Of a stretch of 64,000 nucleotides of DNA, positions 10,474-64,000 are shown one piece after another. This stretch comes from Spirochaetia bacterium (lineage in GTDB: Bacteria; Spirochaetota; Spirochaetia; SZUA-6; Bin103): contig OZ253572.1 of the NCBI GenBank assembly GCA_965262935.1, forward strand, positions 6,462,066-6,526,065, written 5' to 3'. A program made the translations under genes and the position numbers. The number at the start of each line of letters is the position of its first letter. The stretch's first letter is position 1. The notes below the pieces were generated by a model. The model was not told the origin of the DNA and searched no databases. It saw nothing but the letters and a program-made list of their open reading frames with translations.

Positions 10474-12063
10474 ATGACGCACGGATTTTCAGCCGGCCGG
10501 AGACGGTTGCTCGCGGCACTCTGCATCGCGTTGGCTGCTCTGCTCGCCATCAGTTGCACGGTGCCGGGCGCGGATCGCGCGGATCGCACGGACGCGGCGC
10601 CAGGACATGGGCGGCTGAGCGCTCTACGGGTGACCGGCGGGGAGGGCCTGTTTCCCGCATTCGATCCCGGCGTGCACCACTACGCGGTGCGGTGCGAAGA
10701 TGGAACGACGCTGCAGATCGCCGCGCAGGCCGTGGACAGCGATGCCCGCCTCACGCTGCTGCACAACGGTCGCACCACGACCGGCGCCGTGGAAGAGACG
10801 GTCACGGTCAACAGCGACCACGACATTGCAATCGAAGTCCGCGACGGGCGGGGCACCTCGACCTACTACGTGCACTGCATTCCGCTTGAGTTCCCGGACA
10901 TCACGATCGAGAAACGGACCGCGGCCGTGACTGACGGCTTGCTGCTGATGACTCCCGGCGTACGCCGAAGCGAAATCTCGTGGCTGGCCATCGTGGACAA
11001 CAACGGCGTACCGCGCTGGGTGCGCAAGCCGAACGTGAGCGCGCGCAACTTCCGGCACTACGCCGACGGCCGGTACTCCTACTCCGAACGCGCCGCCGAC
11101 GGCAGTGAAGACGACACTGAAGACGCGGTGATCCTGGACGCGGAGTTCAACCGGATCGATACCGCCACGCTCGTCGGCGACCTGCTGGCCGAGCACACCG
11201 GCGGCCACGACTTTCTGATCACCGACCGCGGCACCTACCTGCTCATGTCCTACTATCCCGCGGAGCGCGATCTGAGCGGGTTCGAGTGTGAAGACGAAGA
11301 TGGTTCCGCCCGGCCGTGTTCGACGATGGAGCCCGCCGACGACTCGGTGATTCAGGAGGTGACACCCGCCGGGGACGAGGTGTTCCGGTGGAACTCCTGG
11401 GATCACCTGAAGATAGCGGATTGCACGATCCATCGCTTCCCCAACGACTATGCGCACCTCAACTCCCTGCACGAGCTGGATGGGGACATCGTGGCATCGC
11501 TGCGCGGCTGTGCGCAGGTAGTGCGCATCGAGCGTGCCACCGGCGCCGTGGTGTGGCAGATGGGCGGCACGCTGCCCATGCGCGCAGATCGGCCGATGCC
11601 TGCCACCGGCGCCGCCGCATTCCTGAAGGTGGTCGACGACCCGGCGGAAGAGTTCTGCGGCCAGCACCACGTAACCGCCACCACGGACGGCAGGCTCCTG
11701 ATGTTCGACAACGGCAACCACTGCCTCGGCGGGCGCAAGAACGAGCGCCCGTTCACGCGCATCGTGGAGTACGACATCTCTTCCGGCACCGAGGCGCGCT
11801 GGGTGCGTGATTACCGGCTGCCGCCAGAGGACGGAATCTCGACCTCCGGCGGCGGCGTGGTGGCGCTGGCCGGCACCGGCCACTGGCTCATCACCTGGGG
11901 CAACAACGGGCCGATGAACGGGGTGAGCGAAGTGGACACCACCGGCACGGAGATTTTCCGCCTGAGCATGTCCCGAAACGGTCAGAGATACGGCACCGCC
12001 CGCGTATACCGGGAAAGCGAGGCCACCCTCCGCCTGCAACCCAACTTGCCGGACCCACGCTAA
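10474..12063 (+). CDS. lipoprotein (529 aa): cadherin-like beta-sandwich plus ASST-like beta-propeller. Paralog of the C-terminal half of 5902..9774.
   Basis: Lipobox LAISC. LSALRVTGG...HHYAV. GHDFLITD, WNSWDH and FCGQHHV motifs are collinear with the large lipoprotein. Confidence 0.8.
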   Translation: MTHGFSAGRRRLLAALCIALAALLAISCTVPGADRADRTDAAPGHGRLSALRVTGGEGLFPAFDPGVHHYAVRCEDGTTLQIAAQAVDSDARLTLLHNGRTTTGAVEETVTVNSDHDIAIEVRDGRGTSTYYVHCIPLEFPDITIEKRTAAVTDGLLLMTPGVRRSEISWLAIVDNNGVPRWVRKPNVSARNFRHYADGRYSYSERAADGSEDDTEDAVILDAEFNRIDTATLVGDLLAEHTGGHDFLITDRGTYLLMSYYPAERDLSGFECEDEDGSARPCSTMEPADDSVIQEVTPAGDEVFRWNSWDHLKIADCTIHRFPNDYAHLNSLHELDGDIVASLRGCAQVVRIERATGAVVWQMGGTLPMRADRPMPATGAAAFLKVVDDPAEEFCGQHHVTATTDGRLLMFDNGNHCLGGRKNERPFTRIVEYDISSGTEARWVRDYRLPPEDGISTSGGGVVALAGTGHWLITWGNNGPMNGVSEVDTTGTEIFRLSMSRNGQRYGTARVYRESEATLRLQPNLPDPR

Positions 12064-16917: not shown

Positions 16918-17524
16918 CACTTCCTCCTTCACTTATTGCCGGGGCCTATTACATCGGGGCCCTTAGCTGGGCCAACGACCCGCAGAACCCTCGCCCCCGC
17001 TATCCGATGGCGCAATAATGCATTGCCCAATCGGACGTTGTCAACCTGTTGCGCCCCGGAAATCGAGTAGCCGCTCACCTTGCGGTCAGCGGGCGCACGA
17101 TCAGTCTCCAGAACTGGTCAACTCCAGGATACTCCTACAGTAACGCCAGCGCAACCGCCAGCGCAACAGAGGGAGAATATCACGAAGCCACCACTGTGTA
17201 AACAGTCACCGGAACGGGCATTATGCCCGCACGTCCAAACAATTGCAAGCGGCCCGCCTCCTTTGCGGAAGCCGCACCTTGTACCAGGATGCGAACGCTG
17301 TCAAACACGCGTTCTCCGAGTGTATCAATGCAATAGTCATGCCAAGCTGCGATGGTGGAAAAAGGACCGTGGCAGGCTACCACAAGGGCGGCGCACACGG
17401 TAATCATGCGTCTCATAGGTGACATTTTTGTAGGAAATGATAGCAAAGGCTACGCACACGTAGGGTAAGGACCTTGCGAAACAGGTTGACCGGCTGCGGC
17501 GGCGGTCGTAACATCGCAATTCGC

Positions 17525-18763
17525 ATGGCTGCCGAATTCAGTCTTTCCATCTATCCGTGGGTCTACCTGAGCAAGTGCGACGGAGACGCATGGGAGCCCG
17601 AGTATATCGAGAAGCGCCACCTCAGCCCCGCCGAGGAGGAGGCGCTGCCGGACGCGGAGCGCGAGCGGCTGTACCGCGAGCGCAACGAGTTTCCCGGACT
17701 GCCGCTGGTCAACTACACGACCCAGTACGCGATGGCCTGCTTCGAGGGCCTGAAGGCGTTTCCGCAGCCGGACGGATCGCTCAAGCTGTTCCGCCCGCGC
17801 GAAAACGCCATCCGCATGAAGCGCTCCATGGAGGGGCTGTACATGCCGGGCGTGCCGGTGGACCAGTTCGTGGACGCGACGCGCGGCGTGGTGGCGCGCA
17901 ATCAGGCGATCGGCTTCGCACCCGCCTACGACCCGGCCTGGGAGCGCGACGACTTCGCCAGTGGGCACACCGTATATATAAGGCCCTTCTCGCTGGCCGA
18001 AGGCGGCATCGGGGTGAACCTGAGCCAGGCGCCCTGGTTCGTGGTGATCTCCACCCGGGTCGGCTCCTACTTCGCCGACGGCGGCTCCTCGGCCACCATC
18101 ACCACCAAGCGGATACGCGCCACCCCCGGCGGCACCGGCTGGATCAAGTGCAGCGCCAACTATGTGACCAGCGCGCTGGCCAAGCGCGAGGCGGAGGTGG
18201 CCGGCTACCTGGAGTGCGTGTTCCTGGACGCCGAGCACCATCGCTACGTGGAGGAGGGCTCCTCCTGCAACCTGTTCTTCGTGCTTGGCGACGGCCGCCT
18301 GGTGACCCCGGCGCTCGGCGACACCATCCTGCCCGGCATCACGCGGCGCACCATCATCGAGCTGGCGGCCGAGGAGGGGATCACGGTGGAGGAGCGTCCG
18401 GTGGCGGTGGAGGAAGTGCTCGACGATGCCGTGGAGGCGTTCGGCACCGGCACGGCCGCGGGCGTGACCCATTTCAGCTCGCTGCGCCACGGCGACACCG
18501 AGAAGGTGTTCGGCGACAGCGCCATCGGGCCGGTGGCACGCGGCTTCCTGAAGACGCTGAAGGGCGTTCAGTACGGGGCGCTGGAAGACCGCCACGGGTG
18601 GATGGTGCCGGTCGCCGGCGAAACCGCCGCGGGCGAAACCGCCGCAGGCGAAACCGCCGCAGGCGGTACGGATGCGGGCGGCGCGGCGAACGGCGCCGGC
18701 ACGGCGGCGCGGGACGCCGGGATGCCGATGGCCGATGTGGCGGCGCAGGCGGCGCCCGGCTGA
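17525..18763 (+). CDS. ilvE: branched-chain amino acid aminotransferase (class IV PLP fold) with a C-terminal AGETAAGETAAGETAAG repeat tail
   Basis: Fold-type IV aminotransferase motifs (…GLKAFPQPDGSLKLFRPRENAIRM…, …EEGSSCNLFFV…, …GTGTAAGVTH…). Confidence 0.7.
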   Translation: MAAEFSLSIYPWVYLSKCDGDAWEPEYIEKRHLSPAEEEALPDAERERLYRERNEFPGLPLVNYTTQYAMACFEGLKAFPQPDGSLKLFRPRENAIRMKRSMEGLYMPGVPVDQFVDATRGVVARNQAIGFAPAYDPAWERDDFASGHTVYIRPFSLAEGGIGVNLSQAPWFVVISTRVGSYFADGGSSATITTKRIRATPGGTGWIKCSANYVTSALAKREAEVAGYLECVFLDAEHHRYVEEGSSCNLFFVLGDGRLVTPALGDTILPGITRRTIIELAAEEGITVEERPVAVEEVLDDAVEAFGTGTAAGVTHFSSLRHGDTEKVFGDSAIGPVARGFLKTLKGVQYGALEDRHGWMVPVAGETAAGETAAGETAAGGTDAGGAANGAGTAARDAGMPMADVAAQAAPG

Positions 18764-37411: not shown

Positions 37412-37909
37412 GTGAAGGCGCGCATGACGCTGCGCTCCAACCCGCGCGCACTGGTGCCGGTGGCCGTGGTGGCGGCCCTGGTAGCGGGCGCGGTGCTGGT
37501 GGCGGCCCTGGTACAGGTGGTCGTGGGTCTGGTCGCCCTGCTGCTGACCGGCTACCTCGCCTACCGCATCGTGCGCTTCATAATCAAGCACTTGGCGAGC
37601 TACGTGGCCGCGGACGACGACGGCGTCACCATCTGCGAGTTCGGCGAGGACACCCACCACCACCCGTGGGGCGAGGTCACCTTCGCCGGCCAGGCGCGCG
37701 CCGCCGACGGCACCGAGTTGCTGTATGTGTACGTGGAGCAGGACGACCGGCTGATGACCGTGTCGCGCGAGTTCGAGAACTTCGCACCGCTGCGCGGCGA
37801 ACTGGCCCGCCGCGTGCCGCCCACCGACCTGGAGCTGGCCGCCGGCGAATCCCTGTCCGACCACCTGCGCGGCCTCCTGCCGGACACTGAAGACTCTGAC
37901 GAAACCTGA
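37412..37909 (+). CDS. hypothetical membrane protein
   Basis: Two N-terminal TM segments and an acidic C-terminus. No domain recognised. Confidence 0.4.
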   Translation: MKARMTLRSNPRALVPVAVVAALVAGAVLVAALVQVVVGLVALLLTGYLAYRIVRFIIKHLASYVAADDDGVTICEFGEDTHHHPWGEVTFAGQARAADGTELLYVYVEQDDRLMTVSREFENFAPLRGELARRVPPTDLELAAGESLSDHLRGLLPDTEDSDET

Positions 37910-38002: not shown

Positions 38003-39157
38003 ATGATAAAAAGACTGTACGTCGACAATTACAAGTGCCTCGTCAATTTCGACCTGCCGTTACAAGAGTTGTCCCTGCTGCTAGGACCGAGCGGTACTGG
38101 AAAGACCTCTGTGCTCGACATCATTTTCGCCTTGAGAAGGCTTCTCTCTGGGGATGCACGAGTAGCCGATCCTGACATTTTCCCTGACCGAACCCTCACC
38201 TGTTGGCAGAGTCGTGAACTACAGGTCTTCGAGATTCAGGCGTTCTTGCAATCAGAGACATTCACCTATCGACTCGAAGTGGAACATCAGCGGTCCGCGC
38301 ACTTGTCGCGTATCAGCCGCGAAAAGCTGGAGGTGGAGGGGACACCGTTATTCGATTGTGTGCAAGGGGAAGTGCAACTCTTTCGCGACGATCCCAGTGG
38401 TAGGACAACCGAGGGACCAGTCTATAGCACAGACTGGAGGGAGTCGGCTCTGGCCAGAGTCGCTCCGGGGCGCTCCAATGAACGCCTTACCCGCTTCCTT
38501 GAGTATATGGGACGAGTGCTCGTGTGCGGCGTCAATCCTCCTGTTCTGCAGGCGGAATCGACTGAGGAGAACTCGGTGCTGCAACGAGACGCCCGAAACT
38601 TTGCCGATTGGTACCGGCACACGCTGCAGGAACGCCCGGACCTGTATTTCGAACTCAAGAAGACACTGACCGATGTGATCGGCGCCGGATTTGACGGGAT
38701 CCGGCTTGAGAGAGTTGGCACGGAAACCCGCGCATTGATGGTTGCGTTCGCCAATCAAGCAGACACGGATTCCGGCCTAACCTACCCATTGCGTTTTGAC
38801 CGCATTTCGGATGGCCAGCGCGCGCTTATCGTGTTGTACAGCCTCATTCATCTGGCAGGAGGGGGAGGATACACGTTATTCCTTGATGAGCCCGAAAACT
38901 ACGTCGCACTAAGGGAGCTTCAGCCATGGCTTATGAGTCTTGAGAACGCCTGCGGAGACGTCGTATCGCAAGCCGTAGTGAGTTCTCATCATCCCGAATT
39001 AATCGACTATCTGGGATACGAGAGCGGCATTATGTTGCAGCGCGAAACATCCGGAGTTATCACGGTGAGCCGCCCACAGACTAAGTCAGGAGACGGGACG
39101 GAAGATACAATCGGTCTGAAACTCTCCGAATTGGTCGCCAGAGGTTGGGAACAGTGA
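38003..39157 (+). CDS. ABC-type ATPase of the AAA_21/AAA_15 (OLD/AbiLi/RloA-like) class. Putative abortive-infection ATPase.
   Basis: Walker A LLGPSGTGKTSVL. Signature/Walker B region ISDGQRALIVLYSLIHL...YTLFLDEPENYV. H-loop SSHHPEL. Lower GC than flanks. Stop overlaps the next gene start. Confidence 0.8.
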   Translation: MIKRLYVDNYKCLVNFDLPLQELSLLLGPSGTGKTSVLDIIFALRRLLSGDARVADPDIFPDRTLTCWQSRELQVFEIQAFLQSETFTYRLEVEHQRSAHLSRISREKLEVEGTPLFDCVQGEVQLFRDDPSGRTTEGPVYSTDWRESALARVAPGRSNERLTRFLEYMGRVLVCGVNPPVLQAESTEENSVLQRDARNFADWYRHTLQERPDLYFELKKTLTDVIGAGFDGIRLERVGTETRALMVAFANQADTDSGLTYPLRFDRISDGQRALIVLYSLIHLAGGGGYTLFLDEPENYVALRELQPWLMSLENACGDVVSQAVVSSHHPELIDYLGYESGIMLQRETSGVITVSRPQTKSGDGTEDTIGLKLSELVARGWEQ

Positions 39158-39699
39158 GCAGACGGGTCCAGCTCGTCGTATTGTGCGAAGACCAACAGCA
39201 GCGGACGTTCATACTCCAGTTCCTCAAGAAAACAAGAAGGAACGACCCTGTGCTCCGTGTAGAGATGTGTCCCAGAAACTGCGGATCAGCCGAGCAGTAT
39301 GTACGGAAACGCTTCCCGAAAGAAGTTGCCGAACACCACCGGAGACACGTGTCTCAAGCGCTGATCGTAATGCTTGATGGCGACAACTGCGGCGTCGCTG
39401 CACGCATCGCTGAGCTTGAGAAAGCGTGCCGTAAGGCCAAAGTACGCGCCGGACATCCGGAAGAAGGAGTCCTGGTAGTCGTGCCGACATGGCGAATCGA
39501 AACGTGGTTGGCGTATCTCAACGGCGAAACCGTTGACGAGTCGAGGCGGAACTATCCGCACTTACTCCGTCCACGAGATTGCGGCCCCCATGTGACTCAA
39601 CTCGTCGATATGTGTCAGAGACGTCAGTTGCGGGAACCTGCACCGGATTCCCTCGTAGCGGCTTGCACTGAATACCGCCGCTGGATTGCTAACGTTTGA
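39145..39699 (+). CDS. DUF4276/RloB-like small protein, translationally coupled partner of the ATPase
   Basis: TTG/GTG start overlaps the ATPase stop (GTGA). N-terminal VQLVVLCEDQQQRTFILQFL and C-terminal VVVPTWRIETWLAYLNGE resemble the VEG.TE...F and E.W motifs recalled for DUF4276. Confidence 0.55.
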   Translation: MGTVSRRVQLVVLCEDQQQRTFILQFLKKTRRNDPVLRVEMCPRNCGSAEQYVRKRFPKEVAEHHRRHVSQALIVMLDGDNCGVAARIAELEKACRKAKVRAGHPEEGVLVVVPTWRIETWLAYLNGETVDESRRNYPHLLRPRDCGPHVTQLVDMCQRRQLREPAPDSLVAACTEYRRWIANV

Positions 39700-39743: not shown

Positions 39744-40502
39744 CTAGCAACCGCCGCCGCCGCGCTGCCAGGGGGCGGCGCGCAGGATGGGAGCGTAGGC
39801 GTCGTCTTCGAGGCTGATGCGCAGGGCTGAGAGTTCGGCGGCGCTGGGCTCGCGATCCTGGAATTGCAGGCGGCCGACCCGTTCCACCACCGCCACCGGG
39901 GTGCGCTCGTCGCCCTCGCCCATCTCCAGCACCGCGGCGGCGGCGATCGACTGCACGAGGTTGGTCTTTTCCATGGTCAGCTTGCGGCCGTACAGGTCGG
40001 GCGTGCCGGTGTAGTCGCGCAGCGCCTGGAAGCCGCAGTGGGCGATGCCGCGCCCCACCACGCCCCAGTTCAGCGGGATGCCGCCCGAGTCGGCAAGGAT
40101 CACCCCCAAGCGCCGCTCGCCGGCGGTGTGTTCGCGCAGCCGCCGCCACAGGTGGTTGGCGCTGCGCTGCGGGTCGCGCGGCCAGGGCGCCAGTTGGCCG
40201 GCGGCGTTGGACTGGTCGATGCCGGCGTTCACGAACATCCAGTTGCCCTTGATGGTGAGCATGATGTCGTAGCGCGAGGCGTGCGCTTCCAGGTAGTACT
40301 CCGCCTCGCGGCGCACCAGGTCGTGCAGCGCCGCGCGGTCGCCGGCGCGCCCGGTGAGGCGGCCCTCGGCGATGCTGACGATCTTGGTGGCGACCACCAG
40401 CACGCAGCGGTCCGGCAGCGGGGACGGCAGGCTGGCGGCGAGCACCGCCGCCAGGTCGCTGCCGGGACGGATCAGCGGGGTGCGGACGGCGGTAACGGTC
40501 AC
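39744..40502 (-). CDS. CofE-like F420-0:gamma-glutamyl ligase family protein
   Basis: RCVLVVATKIVSIAEGR and MFVNAGIDQSNA match the CofE G-rich/KIVSKAEG and ANAGID(E/Q)SN motifs. ~250 aa. GTG start 16 nt after the upstream gene. Confidence 0.7.
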   Translation of the reverse strand: MTVTAVRTPLIRPGSDLAAVLAASLPSPLPDRCVLVVATKIVSIAEGRLTGRAGDRAALHDLVRREAEYYLEAHASRYDIMLTIKGNWMFVNAGIDQSNAAGQLAPWPRDPQRSANHLWRRLREHTAGERRLGVILADSGGIPLNWGVVGRGIAHCGFQALRDYTGTPDLYGRKLTMEKTNLVQSIAAAAVLEMGEGDERTPVAVVERVGRLQFQDREPSAAELSALRISLEDDAYAPILRAAPWQRGGGGC

Positions 40503-40518
40503 CGCTTGGCCAGCGCCA

Positions 40519-42003
40519 CTACGGCAGGTCGTGCCGGTAGCCGCGGGCGCTGGCCAGGGCGAGTCCGCCGGCGATGCTGCGGTAGAAGTCGAAGCGCTCG
40601 ATGCGGCCCGGAAACAGTTCCTCCAGCCGCGCCTGCACCGGCAGGAGCTGCGACGAGCCGCCGGTGCACACGACGCGATCGACGCGCTCGGCCGCCACCC
40701 GCGTCTTGTCCAGCAGCGTGGTGACCGCGCCGCCGACCGCGTCCACCACCGGCTCCAGAATCTGCTCCAGCCGCGGGCGGTCGAACGGCACCTCCAGATC
40801 GATGTCGGGCAGCGCGATCGCCGTGTGCTCCGTCTCCGACAGGCGCGCCTTGGCGCGTTCGGTGGCATTCAGCAAGGCGTACGCGTAATTGCCGCGCACC
40901 AGCCGCCACAGCCGGGCCAGCTTGCGCTGCTGGTCAGGCCCCGACCTGATGCCGGCGAACAGGGTGTCCATCAGGTCCGGCTGATTCATCATGTACGCCA
41001 TCTGCCAATTGAGCAGGTAGTCGGCGTAGCGGTAGAAGGGAAACACGGTGTCGGCGTGACTGAGGTGCCGCGCGCTCTTGATCGGCGCGCCCTCGCCGAG
41101 CTCCGGGAACACCAGCCGCTTGATGATGAGTTGATCGATCAGGTTGCCGCCGAGCGGCAGGCCCTCGGTGCCGAGCACCCGGAACTGCCCGTCGCGGCTC
41201 TCCAGCAGACACAGGTCCAGGGTTCCGCCGCCGAAGTCGAAGGTCAACAGAAGCTGCGGCTCGTGGCGGCGCACGTCACTGGCCGCCGCCAGCAGGCCGC
41301 GCCGGACGGGCGCGGAGCGCGCCGCCTCGGGCGCCGCCAGGCGCTGGGAATGGAGGTAGCTCAAGCTGGCCGCCACCGGCTCCGGGTAGAACGTGAAGTC
41401 GGTGAAGCCGGCGTGGCGGCACGCTTCTTCCACGCGTGCCATGGCGATCGCGTTGGCATCGTCATCGCCGACGAACCGTACCGGGCGCCCGATGTGCACG
41501 CCGCCGTCCACCGTGCGGCCCGAGGATTCGATGGAGCGGCGAATCTCGGACAGGATCAGGGTGACCAGGGCGACGGTGCGAAACTGCCGGTCGAACACCT
41601 TGAAGCGCTCGTGGGTGCGGATGCCGAGGTAACTCTTGAGGCCGCGGAACAGGCGTCCGGGCAGCTCTGCGTCGTCATCGCCGCGCACCCGCACCGCAAC
41701 CTCGACGGCGTCTCCCTCCGAGTGGCCGGGAGCGCTGCCGCCGTCGCTGGCGGTGACGGTCATGGCGATCGCCCCAATGTCGATCTTGCGCAGCCGTACC
41801 ACACGGCCGGCGTTGTCGCCGAGGTAGCTGGCGATGGCGATGCTGCCCACGGAGTGGTCCATGGTGCGCCGAATGTAGAGTGCGGTCGGCATGACCGTGG
41901 TCGGGATGGCAAGCGGATCGAGCGTGAGATACGTGATCTGGTCACCATCGGCCACGGCGACAGTAGTGTTGGTCGTGCCGAAATCGAGTCCGATGCCGAT
42001 CAT
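40519..42003 (-). CDS. Hsp70-family ATPase, mostly nucleotide-binding domain with no canonical substrate-binding domain (YegD-like)
   Basis: MIGIGLDFGTTNTTVAV (phosphate-1). LLLTFDFGGGTLDLCLL (connect-1/phosphate-2). VVCTGGSSQLLPVQARLEELFPG (adenosine motif). Confidence 0.75.
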   Translation of the reverse strand: MIGIGLDFGTTNTTVAVADGDQITYLTLDPLAIPTTVMPTALYIRRTMDHSVGSIAIASYLGDNAGRVVRLRKIDIGAIAMTVTASDGGSAPGHSEGDAVEVAVRVRGDDDAELPGRLFRGLKSYLGIRTHERFKVFDRQFRTVALVTLILSEIRRSIESSGRTVDGGVHIGRPVRFVGDDDANAIAMARVEEACRHAGFTDFTFYPEPVAASLSYLHSQRLAAPEAARSAPVRRGLLAAASDVRRHEPQLLLTFDFGGGTLDLCLLESRDGQFRVLGTEGLPLGGNLIDQLIIKRLVFPELGEGAPIKSARHLSHADTVFPFYRYADYLLNWQMAYMMNQPDLMDTLFAGIRSGPDQQRKLARLWRLVRGNYAYALLNATERAKARLSETEHTAIALPDIDLEVPFDRPRLEQILEPVVDAVGGAVTTLLDKTRVAAERVDRVVCTGGSSQLLPVQARLEELFPGRIERFDFYRSIAGGLALASARGYRHDLP

Positions 42004-50594: not shown

Positions 50595-52607
50595 ATGATC
50601 ATGGAACACGACACAATCACGATTTCGCAGGCGACGGCAGTGGCGACGCCTGAACCGACGGTGGTCATGCAGCCGGCCGGGGGTGCTGTCGCCATCGCTC
50701 GGGAGACGGCGGGAGGGCGCAAGCCGCCGGACGCCGTATCGGCGCGACCGGGTCCGGCCCAGCCGGCCGAGTTGGAACTGCTCGGCAACCAGATCGCCGA
50801 GTTGTCCGCGCGCATCGACGCCGCCACCTACGACCTGCTGTGCCACCTGCACGAGTTCGACCGCCGCTACGGCTGGGAAGGTTGGCGCTCCTGCGCCCAC
50901 TGGCTCAACTGGCGCACCGGCCTCGACCTCGGCGCCGCCCGCGAGAAGCTGCGCGTCGCCGCCGCGCTGGCCGATCTCAACCACGTCTCTGCCGCCATGG
51001 CACGCGGCCAGTTGTCCTACTCGAAGGTGCGCGCCCTGACCCGGGTGGCCTCCCCCGCCACCGAAGCGCGGCTGCTGGCGGTGGCCTTGTGCGCCACCGC
51101 CGCGCAAGTGGAGCGCCTGGTGCGGGCCTGGCGGCGGGCGGACCGCGACGCGCAGCCGGATGCCGAGCAGGTGCTCCTGGCCAGCCGGGCGCTGACCATG
51201 CAGGTGGACGAGGACGGCATGGTGGTGCTGCGCGGGCGGCTGCCGCCGGAGGTGGGCGCGCTGCTGCTGCGCGCCGTGGAGGCGGCAATGCAGCAGGTGC
51301 CGGCGAGCGCGGACGGCGGTGAGCCCACGATCGCGCAGCGGCGTGCCGACGCGCTGGGGCTGGTGGCCGAGAGTGCGCTGGCCGGCGGACTCGATCCGGG
51401 CAACCCCGCCGACCGCTTCCAGGTAACGGTACACGTGCAAGCGGACGCTCTTCCCGCTCTGCCCGCCCGCGACCCGGCCGACGCAGCGCCGCGCGTTGCC
51501 GCGGAAACGCGAGAGGTCAGCCCGGCTTCGTCGGAGCCGGTCGCGCCGGCAACGCCGCGCGTTGCCGCCGATACGCGCGTGGTCAGCCCCGCGCCGTCGG
51601 AGGCGCTCGCTCCGGCGCGGCCGCGCGTTGCCGCCGAGACATGCGCGGCCAGCCCGGCGCCGTCGGAGCCGATCGCGCCGGCAAAGAACCTTGTCTCGGA
51701 GCACGCGGCCATGGAGCAACGCGGCGGTCTTGGCGCGGGAGGGGAGCTAGTGCCCGGCGTCGCCGCTGAGTCGGCGCGGTCGCCCCATCGCACCAGTGGC
51801 CTCGAAAGCCGGAGTGCAGACGCCGCTGGCTGGTTGCCCCTTTGCGAGGAGTCGACATCGCGCGCCCGTGACGCCAACGATCAGGACAAGCGATGTACCG
51901 AGATCGCCGGCCGGCCGTCCCACGCGGGGCAGGCGACCAATGGCGCGCCTCACATTTCCGCGGAAACGTTCGAGGTCAGCGAAGCGGCTTTTGAACGTGT
52001 GGATCCGGGGACAGACCTGGACGCCGGCCAGGCCGTGATCGAGCAGGCGGGCGGCCTCCACCTGGGCAGAGAGGCGGCCCGCCGCGTGGCCTGCGATGCC
52101 GGCATCGTGGTGCTGCGCCACGCCGCCGGCGGCGAGGTCCTGGATGTCGGGCGCAGGACCCGCACCGTGCCGAGCGCCATGCGCCGCGCCCTGCTCAGCC
52201 GGGACCGCGGCCAGTGCCAGTTCCCGGGCTGCGAGTCGCGCCACTGCGATGCCCATCACGTCGAGCACTGGGCGGACGGCGGGGAGACCCGGCTGCAGAA
52301 CCTCGTCCTCGCGTGCCGGTTTCACCACCGCGCGCTGCACGAAGGGAGCTTTCGGGTGGTTCCGGGAGACGCGGATGGGCGGTTCCGGTTCCTGCGCCCG
52401 GACGGCACGCCGCTGCCGGCAGAGCCGCCGGTAGCGAGCTGGGAAGGGGCGCCGCTGGCGCCGACCGACGCGCGGCTGGCGGCAGCCGGCATCGGCATCG
52501 GTCCGCACACCGCCACGCCCGAGTGGTATGGGGAGTCGCTGAACCTGACGTCGGCGCTGGATGTGCTGTGGGAGCCGACGGCGGCCGTCGCGCTCGGCAG
52601 TTCCTGA
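50595..52607 (+). CDS. DUF222 family protein with a C-terminal HNH endonuclease motif (13E12-repeat-family-like), containing a 3 x 20-aa internal repeat
   Basis: N-terminal LLCHLHEFDRRYGWEGWRSCAHWLNWRTGL. C-terminal RALLSRDRGQCQFPGCESRHCDAHHVEHWADGGETRLQNLVLACRFHHRALHEG. Confidence 0.8.
   Translation: MIMEHDTITISQATAVATPEPTVVMQPAGGAVAIARETAGGRKPPDAVSARPGPAQPAELELLGNQIAELSARIDAATYDLLCHLHEFDRRYGWEGWRSCAHWLNWRTGLDLGAAREKLRVAAALADLNHVSAAMARGQLSYSKVRALTRVASPATEARLLAVALCATAAQVERLVRAWRRADRDAQPDAEQVLLASRALTMQVDEDGMVVLRGRLPPEVGALLLRAVEAAMQQVPASADGGEPTIAQRRADALGLVAESALAGGLDPGNPADRFQVTVHVQADALPALPARDPADAAPRVAAETREVSPASSEPVAPATPRVAADTRVVSPAPSEALAPARPRVAAETCAASPAPSEPIAPAKNLVSEHAAMEQRGGLGAGGELVPGVAAESARSPHRTSGLESRSADAAGWLPLCEESTSRARDANDQDKRCTEIAGRPSHAGQATNGAPHISAETFEVSEAAFERVDPGTDLDAGQAVIEQAGGLHLGREAARRVACDAGIVVLRHAAGGEVLDVGRRTRTVPSAMRRALLSRDRGQCQFPGCESRHCDAHHVEHWADGGETRLQNLVLACRFHHRALHEGSFRVVPGDADGRFRFLRPDGTPLPAEPPVASWEGAPLAPTDARLAAAGIGIGPHTATPEWYGESLNLTSALDVLWEPTAAVALGSS
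51470..51660. repeat. 3 x 60-bp in-frame tandem repeat inside the DUF222-HNH gene
   Basis: PRVAAETREVSPASSEPVAPAT / PRVAADTRVVSPAPSEALAPAR / PRVAAETCAASPAPSEPIAPA. Confidence 0.7.
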
Positions 52608-53976: not shown

Positions 53977-54964
53977 GCAGGCACCCACCCGCCGCCGCCC
54001 GGCCGGCTCGGCAGTCGCCGCATGTACGGCGGGCTCGGCGGCTGCGGCGGCAAGCGCCGGGGGCTCGGCCGCCGGATCTGCGGACGCCGCGGGCTTGGCG
54101 CACTCTGCGGACACACGCCCGGCCGGCGCTGCCTGCGCTGCCGGCGCTGCGGGTTTGGCCGGCGCTGCGGGCTTGGCCGGCGCTGCAGGCTCCTCGGGCT
54201 CCGCAGGCGCGTCGGGCTCCTCGAGCGCGGCAGGCGCGCCGGCGCCCGCCACTTCGCAGGATATGGCAGCCGCTACGGCGGGCGGCGTGGACCGCGCGCC
54301 CGCTTCCGGCCAAGCGGCGGGGACAGCCGGTGCCGCCATGTGCCACGGGATCCGCGCCGCAGCCGCCAGCGGCGGGCCGGCGCAGACGAGTCCGGCGACG
54401 CCGAGCCCGCGGCTGCCGCAACTGCGGATGCAGTTCCGCGCGTTCGCCGCGCTGGAACCGGTAAGCCTGCCGCCCGGCTACCGGCTCGCCACCCTGGCGG
54501 AGCGGGACGCCAGCGAGTGGATCGCGGTGCTCAACGCCACCGGCCAACTCGGCGCCTGGGACCGGGCACGCGCCGAGCGCTGTCTGAATGACCCGCGCCC
54601 GGTGCTGCCCGAGGGAACTTATCTGATCATGCACGACGACCGTGCCGTGGCCACTGCTTGCACCGTGTTGCCGACGCCCGCCGAGCCGCGTTGCGAGCTG
54701 GGTTGGGTGGCGGTGGATCCCGGCGATCAGGGACGCGGGCTGGGGTTGCAGGTGTGCCGCGCGGTGCTATGGTACGCTCGTCGCCGCGGCTGGCCGGCCG
54801 CCACGCTCGACACCGACGGCTGGCGTCTGCCGGCCATCAGGACGTACCTGAAGCTCGGCTTCGAGCCGGAGCTCACCCACGACAGCCACGGCGCGCGCTG
54901 GCGGGAGGTGCGCCGCCAGTTCGCGACCGCTGCGCTGGCGCCACGACCAGGAGGAGAAAAGTGA
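53966..54964 (+). CDS. GNAT family N-acetyltransferase with a long Ala/Gly/Ser-rich low-complexity N-terminal region
   Basis: C-terminal ELGWVAVDPGDQGRGLGLQVCRAVLWYARRRGW...YLKLGFEP (acetyl-CoA binding motif A). The N-terminus is encoded by 18-bp GC-rich repeats. An alternative start is the internal ATG near 54427. Confidence 0.5.
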   Translation: MSSEQAPTRRRPAGSAVAACTAGSAAAAASAGGSAAGSADAAGLAHSADTRPAGAACAAGAAGLAGAAGLAGAAGSSGSAGASGSSSAAGAPAPATSQDMAAATAGGVDRAPASGQAAGTAGAAMCHGIRAAAASGGPAQTSPATPSPRLPQLRMQFRAFAALEPVSLPPGYRLATLAERDASEWIAVLNATGQLGAWDRARAERCLNDPRPVLPEGTYLIMHDDRAVATACTVLPTPAEPRCELGWVAVDPGDQGRGLGLQVCRAVLWYARRRGWPAATLDTDGWRLPAIRTYLKLGFEPELTHDSHGARWREVRRQFATAALAPRPGGEK

Positions 54965-56226
54965 TCAAACCGTTCGGCGATAGCCGTGACTGGTTCTTTC
55001 GGAAGCGGTTCGGGATGTTCATCCACTGGGGGCTGTACGCCATCCCGGCGTGGCACGAGCAGATCCTGTGGCGCGGTGACATCCGCCGGCGTGACTACGA
55101 AAAGCTGGTGGACGAGTTCAATCCCCGGCAGTTCAACCCGGACGCCTGGCTCGACGTGCTGCAGGAGGCGGGCATGGAATACCTGTGCATCACCACCAAG
55201 CATCACGACGGCTTCTGCCTGTGGGACACCGCCTACACCGACTACAACGTGATGCGCACGCCGTACGGCAAGGACATCATCGGCATGCTGGCCGAGGCGT
55301 GCCACCGGCGCGGCGTGGTGCTCGGCTTCTACTACTCGCTGCCCGACTGGCACCACCGGAACTACCCCAACCTGGGCCGCCACCACGAGATGCTCGGCCC
55401 GCGCCCGGGCGACGATCCGGACGAGGGCAAGTACCTGGAATTCGTGGGCAACCAGGTGCGCGAACTGCTCACCAACTACGGCCCGCTCGGCGAGTTCTTC
55501 TGGGACATCAACGTGGCGGAGTTTCAAGCACCCGAGCTGAACCGGATGATCCGCGACCTGCAGCCGGACGCGCTGATCAACGACCGCGGCCCCGCGCCCG
55601 GCGACTACTCGACCCCGGAGCGGCACGTGCCGGAGGGGGCGGCGTTCACCAGTCCCACCGAGGCGGTGCAGTCGCTCGGCCGCGAAAGCTGGGGCTACCG
55701 CGCGGGCGAAGACTACTACGCGCACAAGTTCCTGATGCAGAGCGTGGACCGCATTCTGGCGATGGGCGGCAACTACCTGCTCAACGTGGGCCCGAAGGCG
55801 GACGGCACCTTCCCGCCTGAGTGCACGGCGGCGCTGCGCCGCATCGGCGACTGGTACGGGCGCGTGCGAGAGGCGTTCGACGGCGCCGTGCCGTGCTCGT
55901 ACCTGGTACAGCGCGCCGCCGCGGGGGCGTCGGGAGACACCCTGTTCCGTTACGACGAGCTGCTGCTCACGCGGCGCGGCAACACCATCTACGTGCACTG
56001 CCCGCACGACCTGCAGACCGGCGGCGCCGTGCTGAGCGGATTCGCCGAGGCGCCGCGCTCGGCCACCCTGCTCAACGACGGCCGCGCGCTGGCGTGGGCG
56101 GTGGACGTGATCCCGTGGCGCTGGACCTCGCGCCCCTGCCTGCGCATATGCGACCTGCCGGTGAACGAGATCACCGGCGAGGTGCTGGTGATCAAGCTGG
56201 AACTGGACGACGAGTCGACCGCCTGA
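54961..56226 (+). CDS. alpha-L-fucosidase (GH29)
   Basis: FGMFIHWGLYA, TKHHDGFCLWDT and YLLNVGP motifs. GTG start overlaps the upstream stop. Confidence 0.85.
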   Translation: MIKPFGDSRDWFFRKRFGMFIHWGLYAIPAWHEQILWRGDIRRRDYEKLVDEFNPRQFNPDAWLDVLQEAGMEYLCITTKHHDGFCLWDTAYTDYNVMRTPYGKDIIGMLAEACHRRGVVLGFYYSLPDWHHRNYPNLGRHHEMLGPRPGDDPDEGKYLEFVGNQVRELLTNYGPLGEFFWDINVAEFQAPELNRMIRDLQPDALINDRGPAPGDYSTPERHVPEGAAFTSPTEAVQSLGRESWGYRAGEDYYAHKFLMQSVDRILAMGGNYLLNVGPKADGTFPPECTAALRRIGDWYGRVREAFDGAVPCSYLVQRAAAGASGDTLFRYDELLLTRRGNTIYVHCPHDLQTGGAVLSGFAEAPRSATLLNDGRALAWAVDVIPWRWTSRPCLRICDLPVNEITGEVLVIKLELDDESTA

Positions 56227-56231
56227 GCCGG

Positions 56232-56510
56232 TCAGCGCTGGCGCCGGCCGGTGACGTGCGCCGCCGCGTTGCGCACCAGCGTGGTGACCAGCCAGGCGAA
56301 GAACGACAGCAGCATCAGCGCCATCACGCCCATGCCAATCGCCACCGCGATGCGCCCCGCAAGCGGCGTGTCCGCGACGAGCATCGCGCCGACCATCCCT
56401 GCCAAGCGCCCGCCGGCCACCGCCGCCACCGCCGCGATCAGCCCGATCACGATCAGCCACACCACGAGATTGACGATGGGATGAGCCGTCTGCCGATCGT
56501 CTGCCGCCAC
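56232..56510 (-). CDS. small hypothetical membrane protein
   Basis: Two predicted TM helices. Weak evidence. Confidence 0.3.
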   Translation of the reverse strand: MAADDRQTAHPIVNLVVWLIVIGLIAAVAAVAGGRLAGMVGAMLVADTPLAGRIAVAIGMGVMALMLLSFFAWLVTTLVRNAAAHVTGRRQR

Positions 56511-56593
56511 GACCGTCTCAATATAACCCGGATCGGTGACCAGGTGATCCGGACCCGTTTGACACGAGTTTCGTGCTTCACTACCTTCGCGTC

Positions 56594-56836
56594 ATGAAAA
56601 ACGTAACGGTTTCATTACCCGAAGATACCGCCCGCTGGCTGCGCCTGGAGGCTGCCAAGGCCGATCGCAGCGTATCCCGCTGGCTGGCCGAACTGCTCGA
56701 CAAGATGCGGCGTCAGGATGACGAGTACGAGGCAGCGATGGCGCGCTATCTGGCGATCAAGCCTCGCAAGTTGCAGTGGGTCGACGGCCGCAAGCCGACC
56801 CGTGAGGAGTTGCATGACCGGGCCAGTTTTCGTTGA
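56594..56836 (+). CDS. ribbon-helix-helix antitoxin (VapB/CopG-like)
   Basis: MKNVTVSLPEDTARWLRLEAAKADRSVSRWLAELL. Overlaps the downstream PIN gene. Confidence 0.7.
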   Translation: MKNVTVSLPEDTARWLRLEAAKADRSVSRWLAELLDKMRRQDDEYEAAMARYLAIKPRKLQWVDGRKPTREELHDRASFR

Positions 56837-57281
56837 CACCAATGTGCTCGTCTACCGTCACGATGCCGCGGACGCTGCCAAGCAGGCACGTGCTGAAGAT
56901 TGGATCACCTGTATCGTCGATCGTCACGCCGGGCGGCTGAGTTTCCAGGTTCTCCAGGAGTTGTACGCCACGCTAACGCGCAAGCTGCAACCGAACCTCG
57001 AGCGGCAGGAAGCACGCGACATCGTCGGCCTCCTTGCGTCCTGGAATCCGCTTGCCGTCGATCTGCCCCTGGTGAGGCGTGCTTGGGATCTGCAGGATCG
57101 CTACTCGCTGTCCTGGTGGGACGCGTTGATCGTTGCCGCGGCGCAAAACAGTGCAAGCCGGGTGCTGTTGACGGAGGATCTGCAACACGGACAGATGTTC
57201 GGGACGGTGCGGGTGATCGATCCGTTCGCGTCCCCGGAGCGCACGCCGGCGGAACTGCTGACCACGGTGCAGGCGGGTTAG
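56814..57281 (+). CDS. vapC: PIN-domain toxin (VapC family)
   Basis: MTGPVFVDTNVLVY...D...WWDALIVAAA...LLTED, the PIN acidic residues. Confidence 0.8.
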   Translation: MTGPVFVDTNVLVYRHDAADAAKQARAEDWITCIVDRHAGRLSFQVLQELYATLTRKLQPNLERQEARDIVGLLASWNPLAVDLPLVRRAWDLQDRYSLSWWDALIVAAAQNSASRVLLTEDLQHGQMFGTVRVIDPFASPERTPAELLTTVQAG

Positions 57282-57285
57282 CCAC

Positions 57286-58452
57286 GTGGCGCGGCGGCCC
57301 AACCTGTTGCTGCTGATCCCGGACCAGCACCGCGCCGACTGGGTGGCCGGAGGCGGCCTGCCGCTGCGTACGCCGGCGCTGCAACGGCTGGCGGAGCGCG
57401 GCATCTGCTTCGAACGCGCCTACTGCACGTCGCCGCTGTGCGCGCCGTCGCGGGCATCGCTCGCCTCCGGGCGCCACTACGCGCACTGCGGCGTGCATGA
57501 CAACTCGCGCAACTATCCGCTCGATCAGCCCACCTTCTACCAGGCGCTGCGCGGCGCCGGCTACCGGGTGGCCGGGGTGGGCAAGTTCGACCTGCACAAG
57601 GACACGACCGATCCCGCCAACGCCTGGTGGGAGCTGGACGGCTCCCGGCTGCTCGACGAATGGGGCTTTACCGACGGTATCGACAGCGAGGGCAAGCTGG
57701 ACGGCAGCAATTCCTACCGCGACGCCGGCGCCCCGCGCGGTCCCTACCTGAAGATGCTGCACGACCGCGGCCTGGCCGACCGGTACGTGCGCGAACACGC
57801 CACCCGCCGCGAGCACCTGGACGCCTACACCACCGCCCTGCCGGACGATGCCTACGGCGACAACTGGGTGGCCGGCAACGCCGTGCATCCCGACCGCGCC
57901 GGCCTGCTGCGCACCCGGCAGAACTACGCCGCCATGATCGAGAACATCGACGGTTGGTGCGGGCGGTTGCTGGACGCGGTGGCGGCACGCGGCGAGTTGG
58001 ACGACACGGTGGTGGTGTACGCCTCCGATCACGGCGAGATGCTCGGCGACCACGGGCGCTGGGGCAAGAGCACCTGGCGCGAGGCGGCGGTGCGCATCCC
58101 GCTGGTCATCGCCGCGCCGCAGGGGGGTACGGCGGGGGCGTCAACGGACGCGCTGGTGAGCCTGCACGACCTGGCGGCGACGTTCCTGGACTACGCCGGC
58201 GCCGCGCCGCTGCCCGGCATGGACGCGGTGTCGCTGCGCCCGGTGGTCGAGGGCCGGCACAAGGGGCATCGCCCGGTGGCGGTGGCCGGCCTGGCGGACT
58301 GGCGCATGGTCACCGACGAGCGCCACAAGCTGGTGGTCAGCCCCGCCCACCCGCCGCTGTTGTTCGACCGCGAAGCCGACGCCTGCGAAGACCACGACCT
58401 GGCCGCCGCCCGTCCGGAGGTGGTGGACGAACTGCGCATGCACCTGGTGTGA
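57286..58452 (+). CDS. sulfatase (formylglycine-dependent arylsulfatase family)
   Basis: CTSPLCAPSRASLASG contains the C-x-P-x-R formylglycine motif. YASDHGE. C-terminal GKxx region. Confidence 0.85.
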   Translation: MARRPNLLLLIPDQHRADWVAGGGLPLRTPALQRLAERGICFERAYCTSPLCAPSRASLASGRHYAHCGVHDNSRNYPLDQPTFYQALRGAGYRVAGVGKFDLHKDTTDPANAWWELDGSRLLDEWGFTDGIDSEGKLDGSNSYRDAGAPRGPYLKMLHDRGLADRYVREHATRREHLDAYTTALPDDAYGDNWVAGNAVHPDRAGLLRTRQNYAAMIENIDGWCGRLLDAVAARGELDDTVVVYASDHGEMLGDHGRWGKSTWREAAVRIPLVIAAPQGGTAGASTDALVSLHDLAATFLDYAGAAPLPGMDAVSLRPVVEGRHKGHRPVAVAGLADWRMVTDERHKLVVSPAHPPLLFDREADACEDHDLAAARPEVVDELRMHLV

Positions 58453-63122: not shown

Positions 63123-64000
63123 TCAGGCGCCGGGATAGGCCCAGGCGGGCTTTTCGTCGGGGGTCGGCGAATTGGCGAAGGTGCCGCGCGCCAATACTGC
63201 CGCGCGCCCGCCGTGCGCGGCCACCAGCGCGGCCTGATCCGCCTTGGCCCGGCGGTCCACCGCCTCGGGGTCGAGTAGCGCGCGCAGCTCCGCTTCGAAG
63301 CGAGCCAGCAGGGCGGCGGCCTCCCGGTCCGGGGCGGCGGCCAGGTCGTGGCGCTCGTCGGGGTCGGCTTGCAGGTCGAAGAGCTGCGGTGGGCCGTCCA
63401 CGTAGTACACGTACTTGTAACGCGCGTCGCGCAGCATATAGGAGGCGGACGCCGAGCCGATGGCATGGTACTCGCTGAACACGGTGCGCGAGTGCGGCGC
63501 GGCGCCGGCGAGTTGCCACAGGTCGGCGCCCGGCAGGCCGGCCGCCGGCGTGCCGCCGACCGCGGACACCACGGTCGGGTAGCAGTCCACCAGGCTCGCC
63601 GGGGTGGCGACGGCGCACCCGGCCGGCACGTCCGGCCCGGCCAGGATCAGCGGTACCGCCGCCGACTCGTCGTACAGGGTGAACTTGCCGGTCAGGCCGC
63701 GCGCGCCGAGCGACTCGCCGTGGTCGGAGGTGTACATGACGCGGGTGTCGTCGGTCAGCCCCAGCCCGGCGAGGGCGCCGAGCACGCGCCCGATCTGCGC
63801 GTCGAGGTGGCTGCAGGCGGCGTAATAGGCGGCGCCCAGGTTGCGCAGTTCCGCCTCCGTGAACGGCTCATCCTCGTGGAAGAAGTGGCGGAAGTGGGCG
63901 ATGGCGGGGTGGCGCGGCCACTGCTGCGGCTGCCATTGCGGCGGCAGCGGGGTGGCGCCGTCGCGGTAGCGCCGGTACCACGCCTGCGGTCCGATGTAGG
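63123..64000 (-). CDS. sulfatase, 5' end beyond the window (second copy)
   Basis: YTSDHGE...GKFTLYDES...C-terminal sulfatase domain. The ORF remains open upstream past the listed Met, so the CxPxR motif is expected off-window. Confidence 0.75.
   Translation of the reverse strand, partial: YIGPQAWYRRYRDGATPLPPQWQPQQWPRHPAIAHFRHFFHEDEPFTEAELRNLGAAYYAACSHLDAQIGRVLGALAGLGLTDDTRVMYTSDHGESLGARGLTGKFTLYDESAAVPLILAGPDVPAGCAVATPASLVDCYPTVVSAVGGTPAAGLPGADLWQLAGAAPHSRTVFSEYHAIGSASASYMLRDARYKYVYYVDGPPQLFDLQADPDERHDLAAAPDREAAALLARFEAELRALLDPEAVDRRAKADQAALVAAHGGRAAVLARGTFANSPTPDEKPAWAYPGA

Follow-up and report, generated by a model that had tools for sequence, protein, structure and literature searches.

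Organization of the two-gene locus

We analyzed a 64,000-nucleotide stretch of DNA from a Spirochaetia bacterium (GenBank assembly GCA_965262935.1, contig OZ253572.1, positions 6,462,066 to 6,526,065), here called the window. Our subject is a pair of adjacent genes on its minus strand, one for an ATPase of the Hsp70 family and, directly downstream, one for a gamma-glutamyl ligase of the CofE superfamily. Both proteins are new, divergent members of known superfamilies, and the conserved pairing of the two, together with membrane protein companions, is new. The features of the locus are collected in Table 1. Loci in related genomes are referred to by number (L001 and so on), and loci that carry both genes are called partnered.

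Table 1. Coordinates of the pair and associated features (window positions, except for the last row, which gives positions in locus L086)
Feature	Coordinates	Strand	Basis
Hsp70-family ATPase, YegD-like, nucleotide-binding domain (NBD) only, 494 aa	40519..42003	-	Pfam, NCBIfam, AlphaFold2 (AF2)/Foldseek, DnaK motif alignment
Spacer between ATPase stop and ligase GTG, 16 bp	40503..40518	-	Sequence
Gamma-glutamyl ligase, CofE superfamily (PF01996/COG1478), FolC2-like branch, 252 aa	39744..40502	-	Pfam, NCBIfam, A. fulgidus CofE alignment
Convergent companion gene, predicted 165-aa membrane-anchored PH-like protein	37412..37909	+	Homology in relatives, AF2, Foldseek
Interrupting insertion (outside the module): AAA_21 ATPase (38003..39157) and 184-aa open reading frame (ORF) (39145..39699)	38003..39699	+	Guanine-plus-cytosine (GC) content, PADLOC, absence in relatives
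Five-gene block: small protein, ATPase, ligase, convergent DjlA_TM+DnaJ protein, membrane protein	L086 5796-12406		Also in L173, L174

The ATPase gene begins with an ATG at 42003 (MIGIGLDFGTTNT...) and ends with a stop codon at 40521-40519; the ligase gene begins with a GTG at 40502 and stops at 39746-39744. Both show the codon-position GC pattern typical of real genes (the window is about 70% GC), each has many homologues, and for both the ratio of nonsynonymous to synonymous substitution rates (dN/dS) against four to five relatives is 0.16 to 0.40. Given intact reading frames and purifying selection, the ATPase and ligase ORFs are genuine genes rather than products of chance. No terminator was detected in the spacer, and scans for promoters and terminators gave no signal above chance. 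With no terminator detected in these 16 bp, the two genes are likely co-transcribed. A search for Rfam families (THF, ZTP, and all others) around the pair, in the window and in six partnered loci, gave no match.

An earlier reading of the window, made from the letters alone (the sequence-only reading), had given the coordinates, lengths, 16-bp spacing, and common strand of the two genes, all of which agree with the sequence and its translations. It had also described an Hsp70-family protein with ATPase motifs and without a substrate-binding domain (SBD), which the motif alignment and structure model described below confirm. The linked pair it reported is real, but three things were overlooked: the affinity of the ATPase to YegD, the FolC2 precedent for the ligase, and the convergent membrane protein gene at 37412..37909.

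The Hsp70-like ATPase

The ATPase matches the Pfam family HSP70 (72 bits). Its best NCBIfam model is PRK11678, the YegD type, and the alignment (model positions 207 to 447 of 450) reaches the C terminus of that model; the models for DnaK and HscA scored 50 to 69 bits against cutoffs above 600. The nucleotide-binding motifs IGLDFGTTNT, DFGGGTLD, and CTGGSSQLLPVQ align with DnaK residue for residue. The phosphate-1, phosphate-2, and adenosine motifs are intact, and the Hsp70 NBD is complete. Residues D7, G9, T10, K123, E208, D256, G258-T261, and G448-S451 are invariant among 19 relatives, down to 41% identity.

An AlphaFold model of the protein (predicted local distance difference test [pLDDT] score, 85.9; predicted template modeling [pTM] score, 0.83) was matched by Foldseek to Hsp70 chains consisting of the NBD only, with target-normalized TM scores of 0.70 to 0.78, and contains no SBD. 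About 110 extra residues appear in the model as insertions at residues 71-111 and 227-245 and in helical segments. A canonical Hsp70 has an SBD and lid C terminal to the NBD; this protein ends where the NBD closes. Its C terminus is not conserved.

Judged by sequence, the ATPase resembles YegD, at a level below certified membership (99 bits versus a cutoff of 331). E. coli YegD and the window ATPase are both about 450 to 500 aa long, with a complete Hsp70 NBD and no SBD, and PRK11678 is the top curated model. Apart from the score, which is well under the cutoff, the window protein differs from YegD in the insertions at 71-111 and 227-245, which are lineage specific, and in having conserved companions (the ligase and a PH-like membrane protein or a J-domain protein), none of which have been described for YegD. 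Relatives of the ATPase are labeled "hypothetical chaperone protein" by JGI, and yegD itself is still "presumably an HSP70 chaperone" in 2026 literature (PMC13232886).

The ligase and its family

The ligase carries the Pfam domain F420_ligase (PF01996) at residues 6 to 206 (123 bits against a cutoff of 25). Its top curated model is TIGR04132, "putative folate metabolism gamma-glutamate ligase," which it matches over model positions 1 to 240 of 241 with 200 bits, where the curated cutoff is 350. With the cofE equivalog model, TIGR01916, the score was 126.7 bits against a cutoff of 180.65, and that match stops at residue 210. A family-specific C-terminal module of about 40 residues is covered by the FolC2 model TIGR04132 and not by the cofE model.

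We aligned the ligase with the solved Archaeoglobus fulgidus CofE (E value, 1e-23). The ligase retains the NAGID-SN, D-[ST], and MGEG motifs: CofE D109 (NAGIDASN), D150-T151, and E208 (MGEG) correspond to D96 (NAGIDQSN), D138-S139, and E196 of the ligase, which are invariant in 18 relatives. In CofE, F92, G153-C155, and R234 hold the F420 deazaflavin (PMC10861534). According to the sequence alignment, made without structural superposition, the F92 segment has been lost from the ligase through a 5-residue deletion. The CofE segment DTNGRCFRRG reads DSGGIPLNWG (G153-R154-C155 become G-I-P, and R157 and R158 become N and W), and the C-terminal CofE region with R234 is unalignable, the ligase family having its own conserved C-terminal module instead. 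With the catalytic motifs kept and the deazaflavin contacts missing, the ligase looks catalytically competent but not built for F420. The suspicion in the sequence-only reading that this is no ordinary F420 ligase is thus borne out, by these missing contacts and by the higher score of TIGR04132 (200 bits, versus 127 for cofE).

Two characterized relatives frame the comparison. With CofE and the FbiB N domain (A. fulgidus 2G9I, 2PHN, and 7ULD), the window ligase has in common the PF01996 fold and the metal and glutamate-site motifs, and acyl-phosphate chemistry is presumably common to both (PMC10861534). It differs in scoring below the cofE cutoff, in lacking the deazaflavin contacts, in its C-terminal module, and in having no F420 gene context. 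The other relative is FolC2. Chlamydia trachomatis CT611 (FolC2), a member of COG1478 encoded in the folate operon, can complement an E. coli folC mutant (PMC1971073, PMC4161248). FolC2 belongs to the same superfamily, and its model is the top match of the window ligase over the full length, including the C-terminal 40 or so residues. Neither protein has F420 genes in its context; relatives of the window ligase adjoin folC or DHFR-like genes, and CT611 functionally replaces FolC (PMC1971073, PMC4161248). The window ligase differs from FolC2 in scoring 200 bits where the cutoff is 350, in having no adjacent folate gene, in substitutions beside its catalytic motifs, and in its Hsp70-like ATPase partner, since no such partner has been reported for FolC2. 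To our knowledge, FolC2 is the only known case of a CofE-superfamily ligase outside F420 producers.

The genomic context of the wider ligase family points toward folate, in branches outside the partnered clade. A canonical folC gene (TIGR01499, 342 bits) lies just upstream of the ligase-family gene in seven loci (L095, L097-L101, and L107), a RibD_C/DHFR-like gene lies beside it in 10 (among L142-L153, L156, and L161), and a Vut_1 vitamin transporter gene lies beside it in 8 (a subset of L134-L168). Because members adjoin canonical folC, some organisms have both FolC and a ligase of this family, so the family is more than a substitute for FolC. Many of the ligase genes next to folC, RibD_C, or Vut_1 are automatically annotated as F420 ligase. 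Relatives at 50 to 60% identity are abundant in Patescibacteria and other bacteria, some of them annotated as folylpolyglutamate synthase, and the NCBI and JGI pipelines annotate relatives of the ligase as coenzyme F420-0:L-glutamate ligase. Such automatic labels are probably wrong for this lineage and for its Patescibacteria relatives.

Around the pair itself, the sequence-only reading had found no other F420 genes in the window, and this stands: no F420 or core folate biosynthesis gene was present among the approximately 40 likely window genes scanned, and cofC, cofD, cofG/cofH, and fbiC were found neither in the 64 kb nor within 8 kb on either side in about 10 related loci. As the partnered clade has no folate gene close to the pair, a folate-type substrate is an extrapolation. 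A class-IV aminotransferase gene at 17474-18763 (+), 22 kb from the pair, belongs to a family that includes PabC and IlvE and is the sole window gene with a loose possible link to folate.

Conservation and phylogenetic limits of the pair

The ligase gene lies directly downstream of the ATPase gene, on the same strand, in all examined relatives with an ATPase identity of at least 65%, which amount to 10 other loci. The partnered loci are L001, L002 (with a frameshifted L004), L086/L087, L089, L090, L127, L170, L173, and L174. They range from 31 to 70% GC and present at least four unrelated flanking contexts. The spacer between the two genes is 3 to 68 bp in these relatives, with the exception of L001 (283 bp). 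The sequence-only reading had staked its case beforehand on the pairing being conserved in related genomes, and its description of the arrangement as tightly linked and not textbook is borne out by a pair conserved across several flanking contexts.

Based on neighbor-joining trees, the partnered ATPases group together to the exclusion of all others (6 of 6 tips), and their clade is sister to ATPases without a ligase (L005, L171, and L172). The partnered ligases likewise form an exclusive clade (8 of 8 tips), which is long branched and nested in the FolC2-like family, and the pairing has a single origin. Partnered ligases can be told by a signature consisting of a one-residue gap, IDQ/RSN, DSGGIPL, and GRGIAHCGF. 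This signature predicted an ATPase partner for P0023, correctly. With substitutions beside their active-site motifs, the partnered ligases may have acquired a different substrate.

Beyond this clade the association was not seen. A CofE-like gene was found within 6 kb in none of the 80 listed loci from species-representative genomes with ATPase relatives at 27 to 56% identity; the closest ATPase relative among the matches listed from those genomes has 56% identity, and the partnered clade was possibly missed there. From the ligase side, 2 of 80 metagenome loci with ligase relatives have the ATPase partner, both within the partnered clade, and the partner is absent upstream in the 47 other ligase loci with enough upstream sequence. 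The broader expectation of the sequence-only reading, that CofE-like ligases might recurrently have Hsp70-like partners, therefore fails in the 47 informative loci outside the clade and in the 80 listed ATPase loci. In the wider ATPase family, the best recurrent neighbor occurs in 12 of 80 listed loci, only in closely related gammaproteobacterial lineages, and no co-chaperone or ligase was seen. By eye, these recurrent gammaproteobacterial neighbors resemble Nudix, thioesterase, MsrA, and cyclophilin-type genes.

The pairing is thus conserved but restricted to one deep lineage, labeled Spirochaetaceae by NCBI: metagenome-assembled genomes named "Spirochaetaceae bacterium" in NCBI carry the ligase at an identity of at least 90% (the same 90% cluster as P0002). 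The scope of the association is limited accordingly, to one lineage known only from metagenomes.

One candidate for a natural fusion of the two proteins was rejected. P0147 (664 aa, HSP70 plus F420_ligase; L004, contig ctg497251_3x_l) has its ligase part in two frames and its C terminus out of frame, and it is an indel artifact of a long-read contig with 3x coverage. The database entries P0020 and P0167 of the partnered clade are likewise out of frame.

Companion genes and origin of the cassette

The sister clade (L005, L171, and L172; 54 to 57% ATPase identity) has the synteny of the window without the ligase, namely the ATPase gene, a convergent small gene, an H+-pyrophosphatase gene, and pspA. 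The small gene is the one at 37412..37909 in the window. Its homologues hold the same convergent position in L001, L002, L004, L089, L090, and L170, and in all three sister-clade loci; it is always convergent to the YegD-like ATPase gene, with or without the ligase gene between. In light of the syntenic sister clade, the simplest history has the ligase gene entering once, between the ATPase gene and this older companion.

Among 5.8 billion proteins, the family of the small gene's product comprises only 78 clusters. The protein has a conserved N-terminal (I)TLRSNPR motif and no sequence match in Pfam or the PDB. In its AF2 model (pLDDT, 87), a long hydrophobic helix precedes a beta-sandwich and a helix, and Foldseek matched the model to PH domains. 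On the basis of this model, we predict a membrane-anchored PH-like protein. Its C terminus is not conserved.

The second partnered sub-branch, sub-branch B (L086, L173, and L174), has flanks entirely different from those of the window's branch, and the ATPase-ligase pair is the sole element common to the two. In sub-branch B the pair belongs to a five-gene block. The small upstream protein has an HPDTGW..NYADRWQV motif and no Pfam match, and in L086 the stop of its gene overlaps the ATPase start by 4 bp. Convergent to the pair is a gene for a DjlA-type membrane J-domain protein with an intact HPD motif, and the block closes with a gene for a membrane protein of 400 to 580 aa. None of these companions, the J-domain protein included, is encoded in the 64-kb window. 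We looked for homology between the PH-like small protein and the J-domain protein of sub-branch B and found none.

J-domains are the canonical activators of Hsp70 ATPases. Sub-branch B recalls a DnaK-DjlA type pairing, as a DjlA_TM+DnaJ protein with an HPD motif is encoded right after the pair. It differs in that the Hsp70-like partner lacks the linker and SBD through which J-domains normally act, and in the window's branch that position is occupied by a PH-like membrane protein, with no J-domain protein within 64 kb.

Possible roles of the pair

The reading that we favor, and to which we give an even chance, is that the pair is a vertically inherited, lineage-specific, co-transcribed cassette, in which a FolC2-type, non-F420 ligase was recruited behind a YegD-type ATPase and has been retained because selection favors expressing the two together in a common process, probably one near the membrane. 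The first gene encodes a YegD-type Hsp70-family ATPase whose NBD is complete and catalytically intact, without a client-binding domain. By analogy with CofE, the product of the second would have a two-metal site at which a nucleoside triphosphate activates the terminal carboxylate of the substrate, to which L-glutamate would then be joined through a gamma linkage. Rather than F420, the substrate would most likely be a folate- or pteroate-type cofactor, given FolC2 and the folC and DHFR-like contexts elsewhere in the family. The ligase gene would have landed once, directly behind the ATPase gene and before the older convergent PH-like companion, and in the second sub-branch a membrane-anchored J-domain protein holds the companion position. 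The linkage has outlasted large shifts in GC content and in flanking genes, and adjacency kept through such changes speaks for co-expression and for a common physiological role, probably one at the membrane. Functional coupling of the ATPase and the ligase is plausible.

Several observations weigh against this reading. Nothing that we found connects the ATPase and the ligase functionally in a direct fashion: there is no true fusion of the two, neither family has the other as a partner outside the partnered clade, and neither a shared regulatory RNA nor a promoter or terminator signal above chance was found for the pair. In L001, a relative with 91% identity, the genes are separated by a very GC-rich spacer of 283 bp (7718-8000). 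The assignment of the ligase is affected as well, since it is under the curated cutoffs of both TIGR04132 and TIGR01916, the partnered ligases have substitutions of their own beside the active-site motifs (IDQ/RSN, DSGGIPL, and GRGIAHCGF), and no folate gene stands beside the pair in any partnered locus.

We considered three other explanations for the pair. One is transcriptional hitch-hiking without shared function, in which the ligase gene arrived behind the ATPase gene a single time and has remained solely through its dependence on the ATPase promoter. A single insertion event, a syntenic sister clade without the ligase, free-standing members of both families elsewhere, and a spacer with no detected terminator or promoter are all consistent with it. 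However, the genes have stayed adjacent while GC content diverged between 31% and 70% and the flanks were rearranged at least four times, beyond the usual span of neutral adjacency, and the 283-bp spacer in L001 did not lead to separation of the genes; we regard hitch-hiking as rather unlikely. The ligase might instead be an ordinary F420-0:L-glutamate ligase (CofE) serving an F420 pathway encoded elsewhere in the genome, as its PF01996 domain, the NCBI and JGI annotation of its relatives, and the catalytic motifs in common with A. fulgidus CofE would allow. This is very improbable, as the ligase scores 127 bits against a cutoff of 181 and higher with the FolC2-type model, the CofE residues F92, G153-C155, and R234 are deleted, replaced, or unalignable, the protein nests in a family found in Patescibacteria and beside folC and DHFR-like genes, and neither the window nor about 10 related loci contain an F420 gene.

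The third explanation is direct mechanistic coupling. A PH-like or J-domain protein would recruit the NBD-only ATPase to the membrane, where the ATPase would hold, remodel, or present a protein, peptide, or membrane-linked substrate for glutamylation by the ligase; alternatively, the ATPase would regulate or assemble a ligase dimer. The strict linkage of a pair that alone is common to two sub-branches with otherwise different flanks fits such coupling, as do the gene for a membrane-anchored protein convergent after the pair in both sub-branches, the long branches of the partnered ligases with substitutions beside their active-site motifs, and the fact that one companion is a DjlA-type J-domain protein, HPD intact, of the kind that activates Hsp70 ATPases. 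Yet CofE-family enzymes are not known to act on proteins, the ATPase lacks a client-binding domain, and the C termini of the ATPase and the small protein are not conserved. Moreover, the association with a J-domain protein comes from three loci of one syntenic lineage, and the sister clade retains the ATPase and the PH-like protein without the ligase, so the ATPase does not require the ligase. We consider direct coupling unlikely. Its boldest form is a new membrane-associated glutamylation machine, in which the NBD-only Hsp70, docked by the PH-like or J-domain protein, would deliver or gate a macromolecular or membrane-linked substrate that the CofE-superfamily ligase poly-gamma-glutamylates. 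This form is quite improbable, but if it is true, it would be the first non-cofactor substrate of the ligase family and the first assigned role of a YegD-type protein.

YegD-type, NBD-only Hsp70 proteins are widespread and without an assigned function, and a strictly conserved cassette that joins one to a CofE-superfamily ligase, together with PH-like or J-domain companions anchored in the membrane, gives a testable handle on both families.

Neighboring genes in the window

The insertion between the ligase gene and the small membrane protein gene was described in the sequence-only reading as a defense-like island beside the pair, with a possible link between them. Its GC content is 0.57, versus about 0.70 for the window. 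The island ATPase (384 aa, AAA_21/AAA_15) matches the PADLOC models HEC-01A, AriA, mad3, and AbiLi; the 184-aa ORF belongs to no family and overlaps the AAA_21 gene by 13 bp. The island is absent in L002, L089, and L170, in which the small membrane protein gene follows the ligase gene after 10 to 89 bp. Neither the ATPase nor the ligase of the pair matched any PADLOC-DB model. Given this and the absence of the island in those three loci, the pair is independent of the island, which is a recent insertion unrelated to it, and the nearness to defense genes is incidental. Membership of the pair in a defense system was rejected on the lack of a PADLOC match and the later insertion of the island, and the proposed link is not supported. 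Repeats around the island carried no usable signal. The two island genes are themselves a candidate defense pair, and the island looks reduced in L001 (302 aa plus 71 aa).

Elsewhere, the window encodes a 1290-aa Calx-beta/arylsulfotransferase protein (5902-9774, minus strand), and a second arylsulfotransferase, an alpha-L-fucosidase, and sulfatases (10474-12063 [+], 54658-58452 [+], and 63123-63785 [-]). Together, the sulfatases, fucosidase, and arylsulfotransferases suggest a lifestyle based on the breakdown of sulfated polysaccharides. A DUF222 protein is encoded at 50595-52607.

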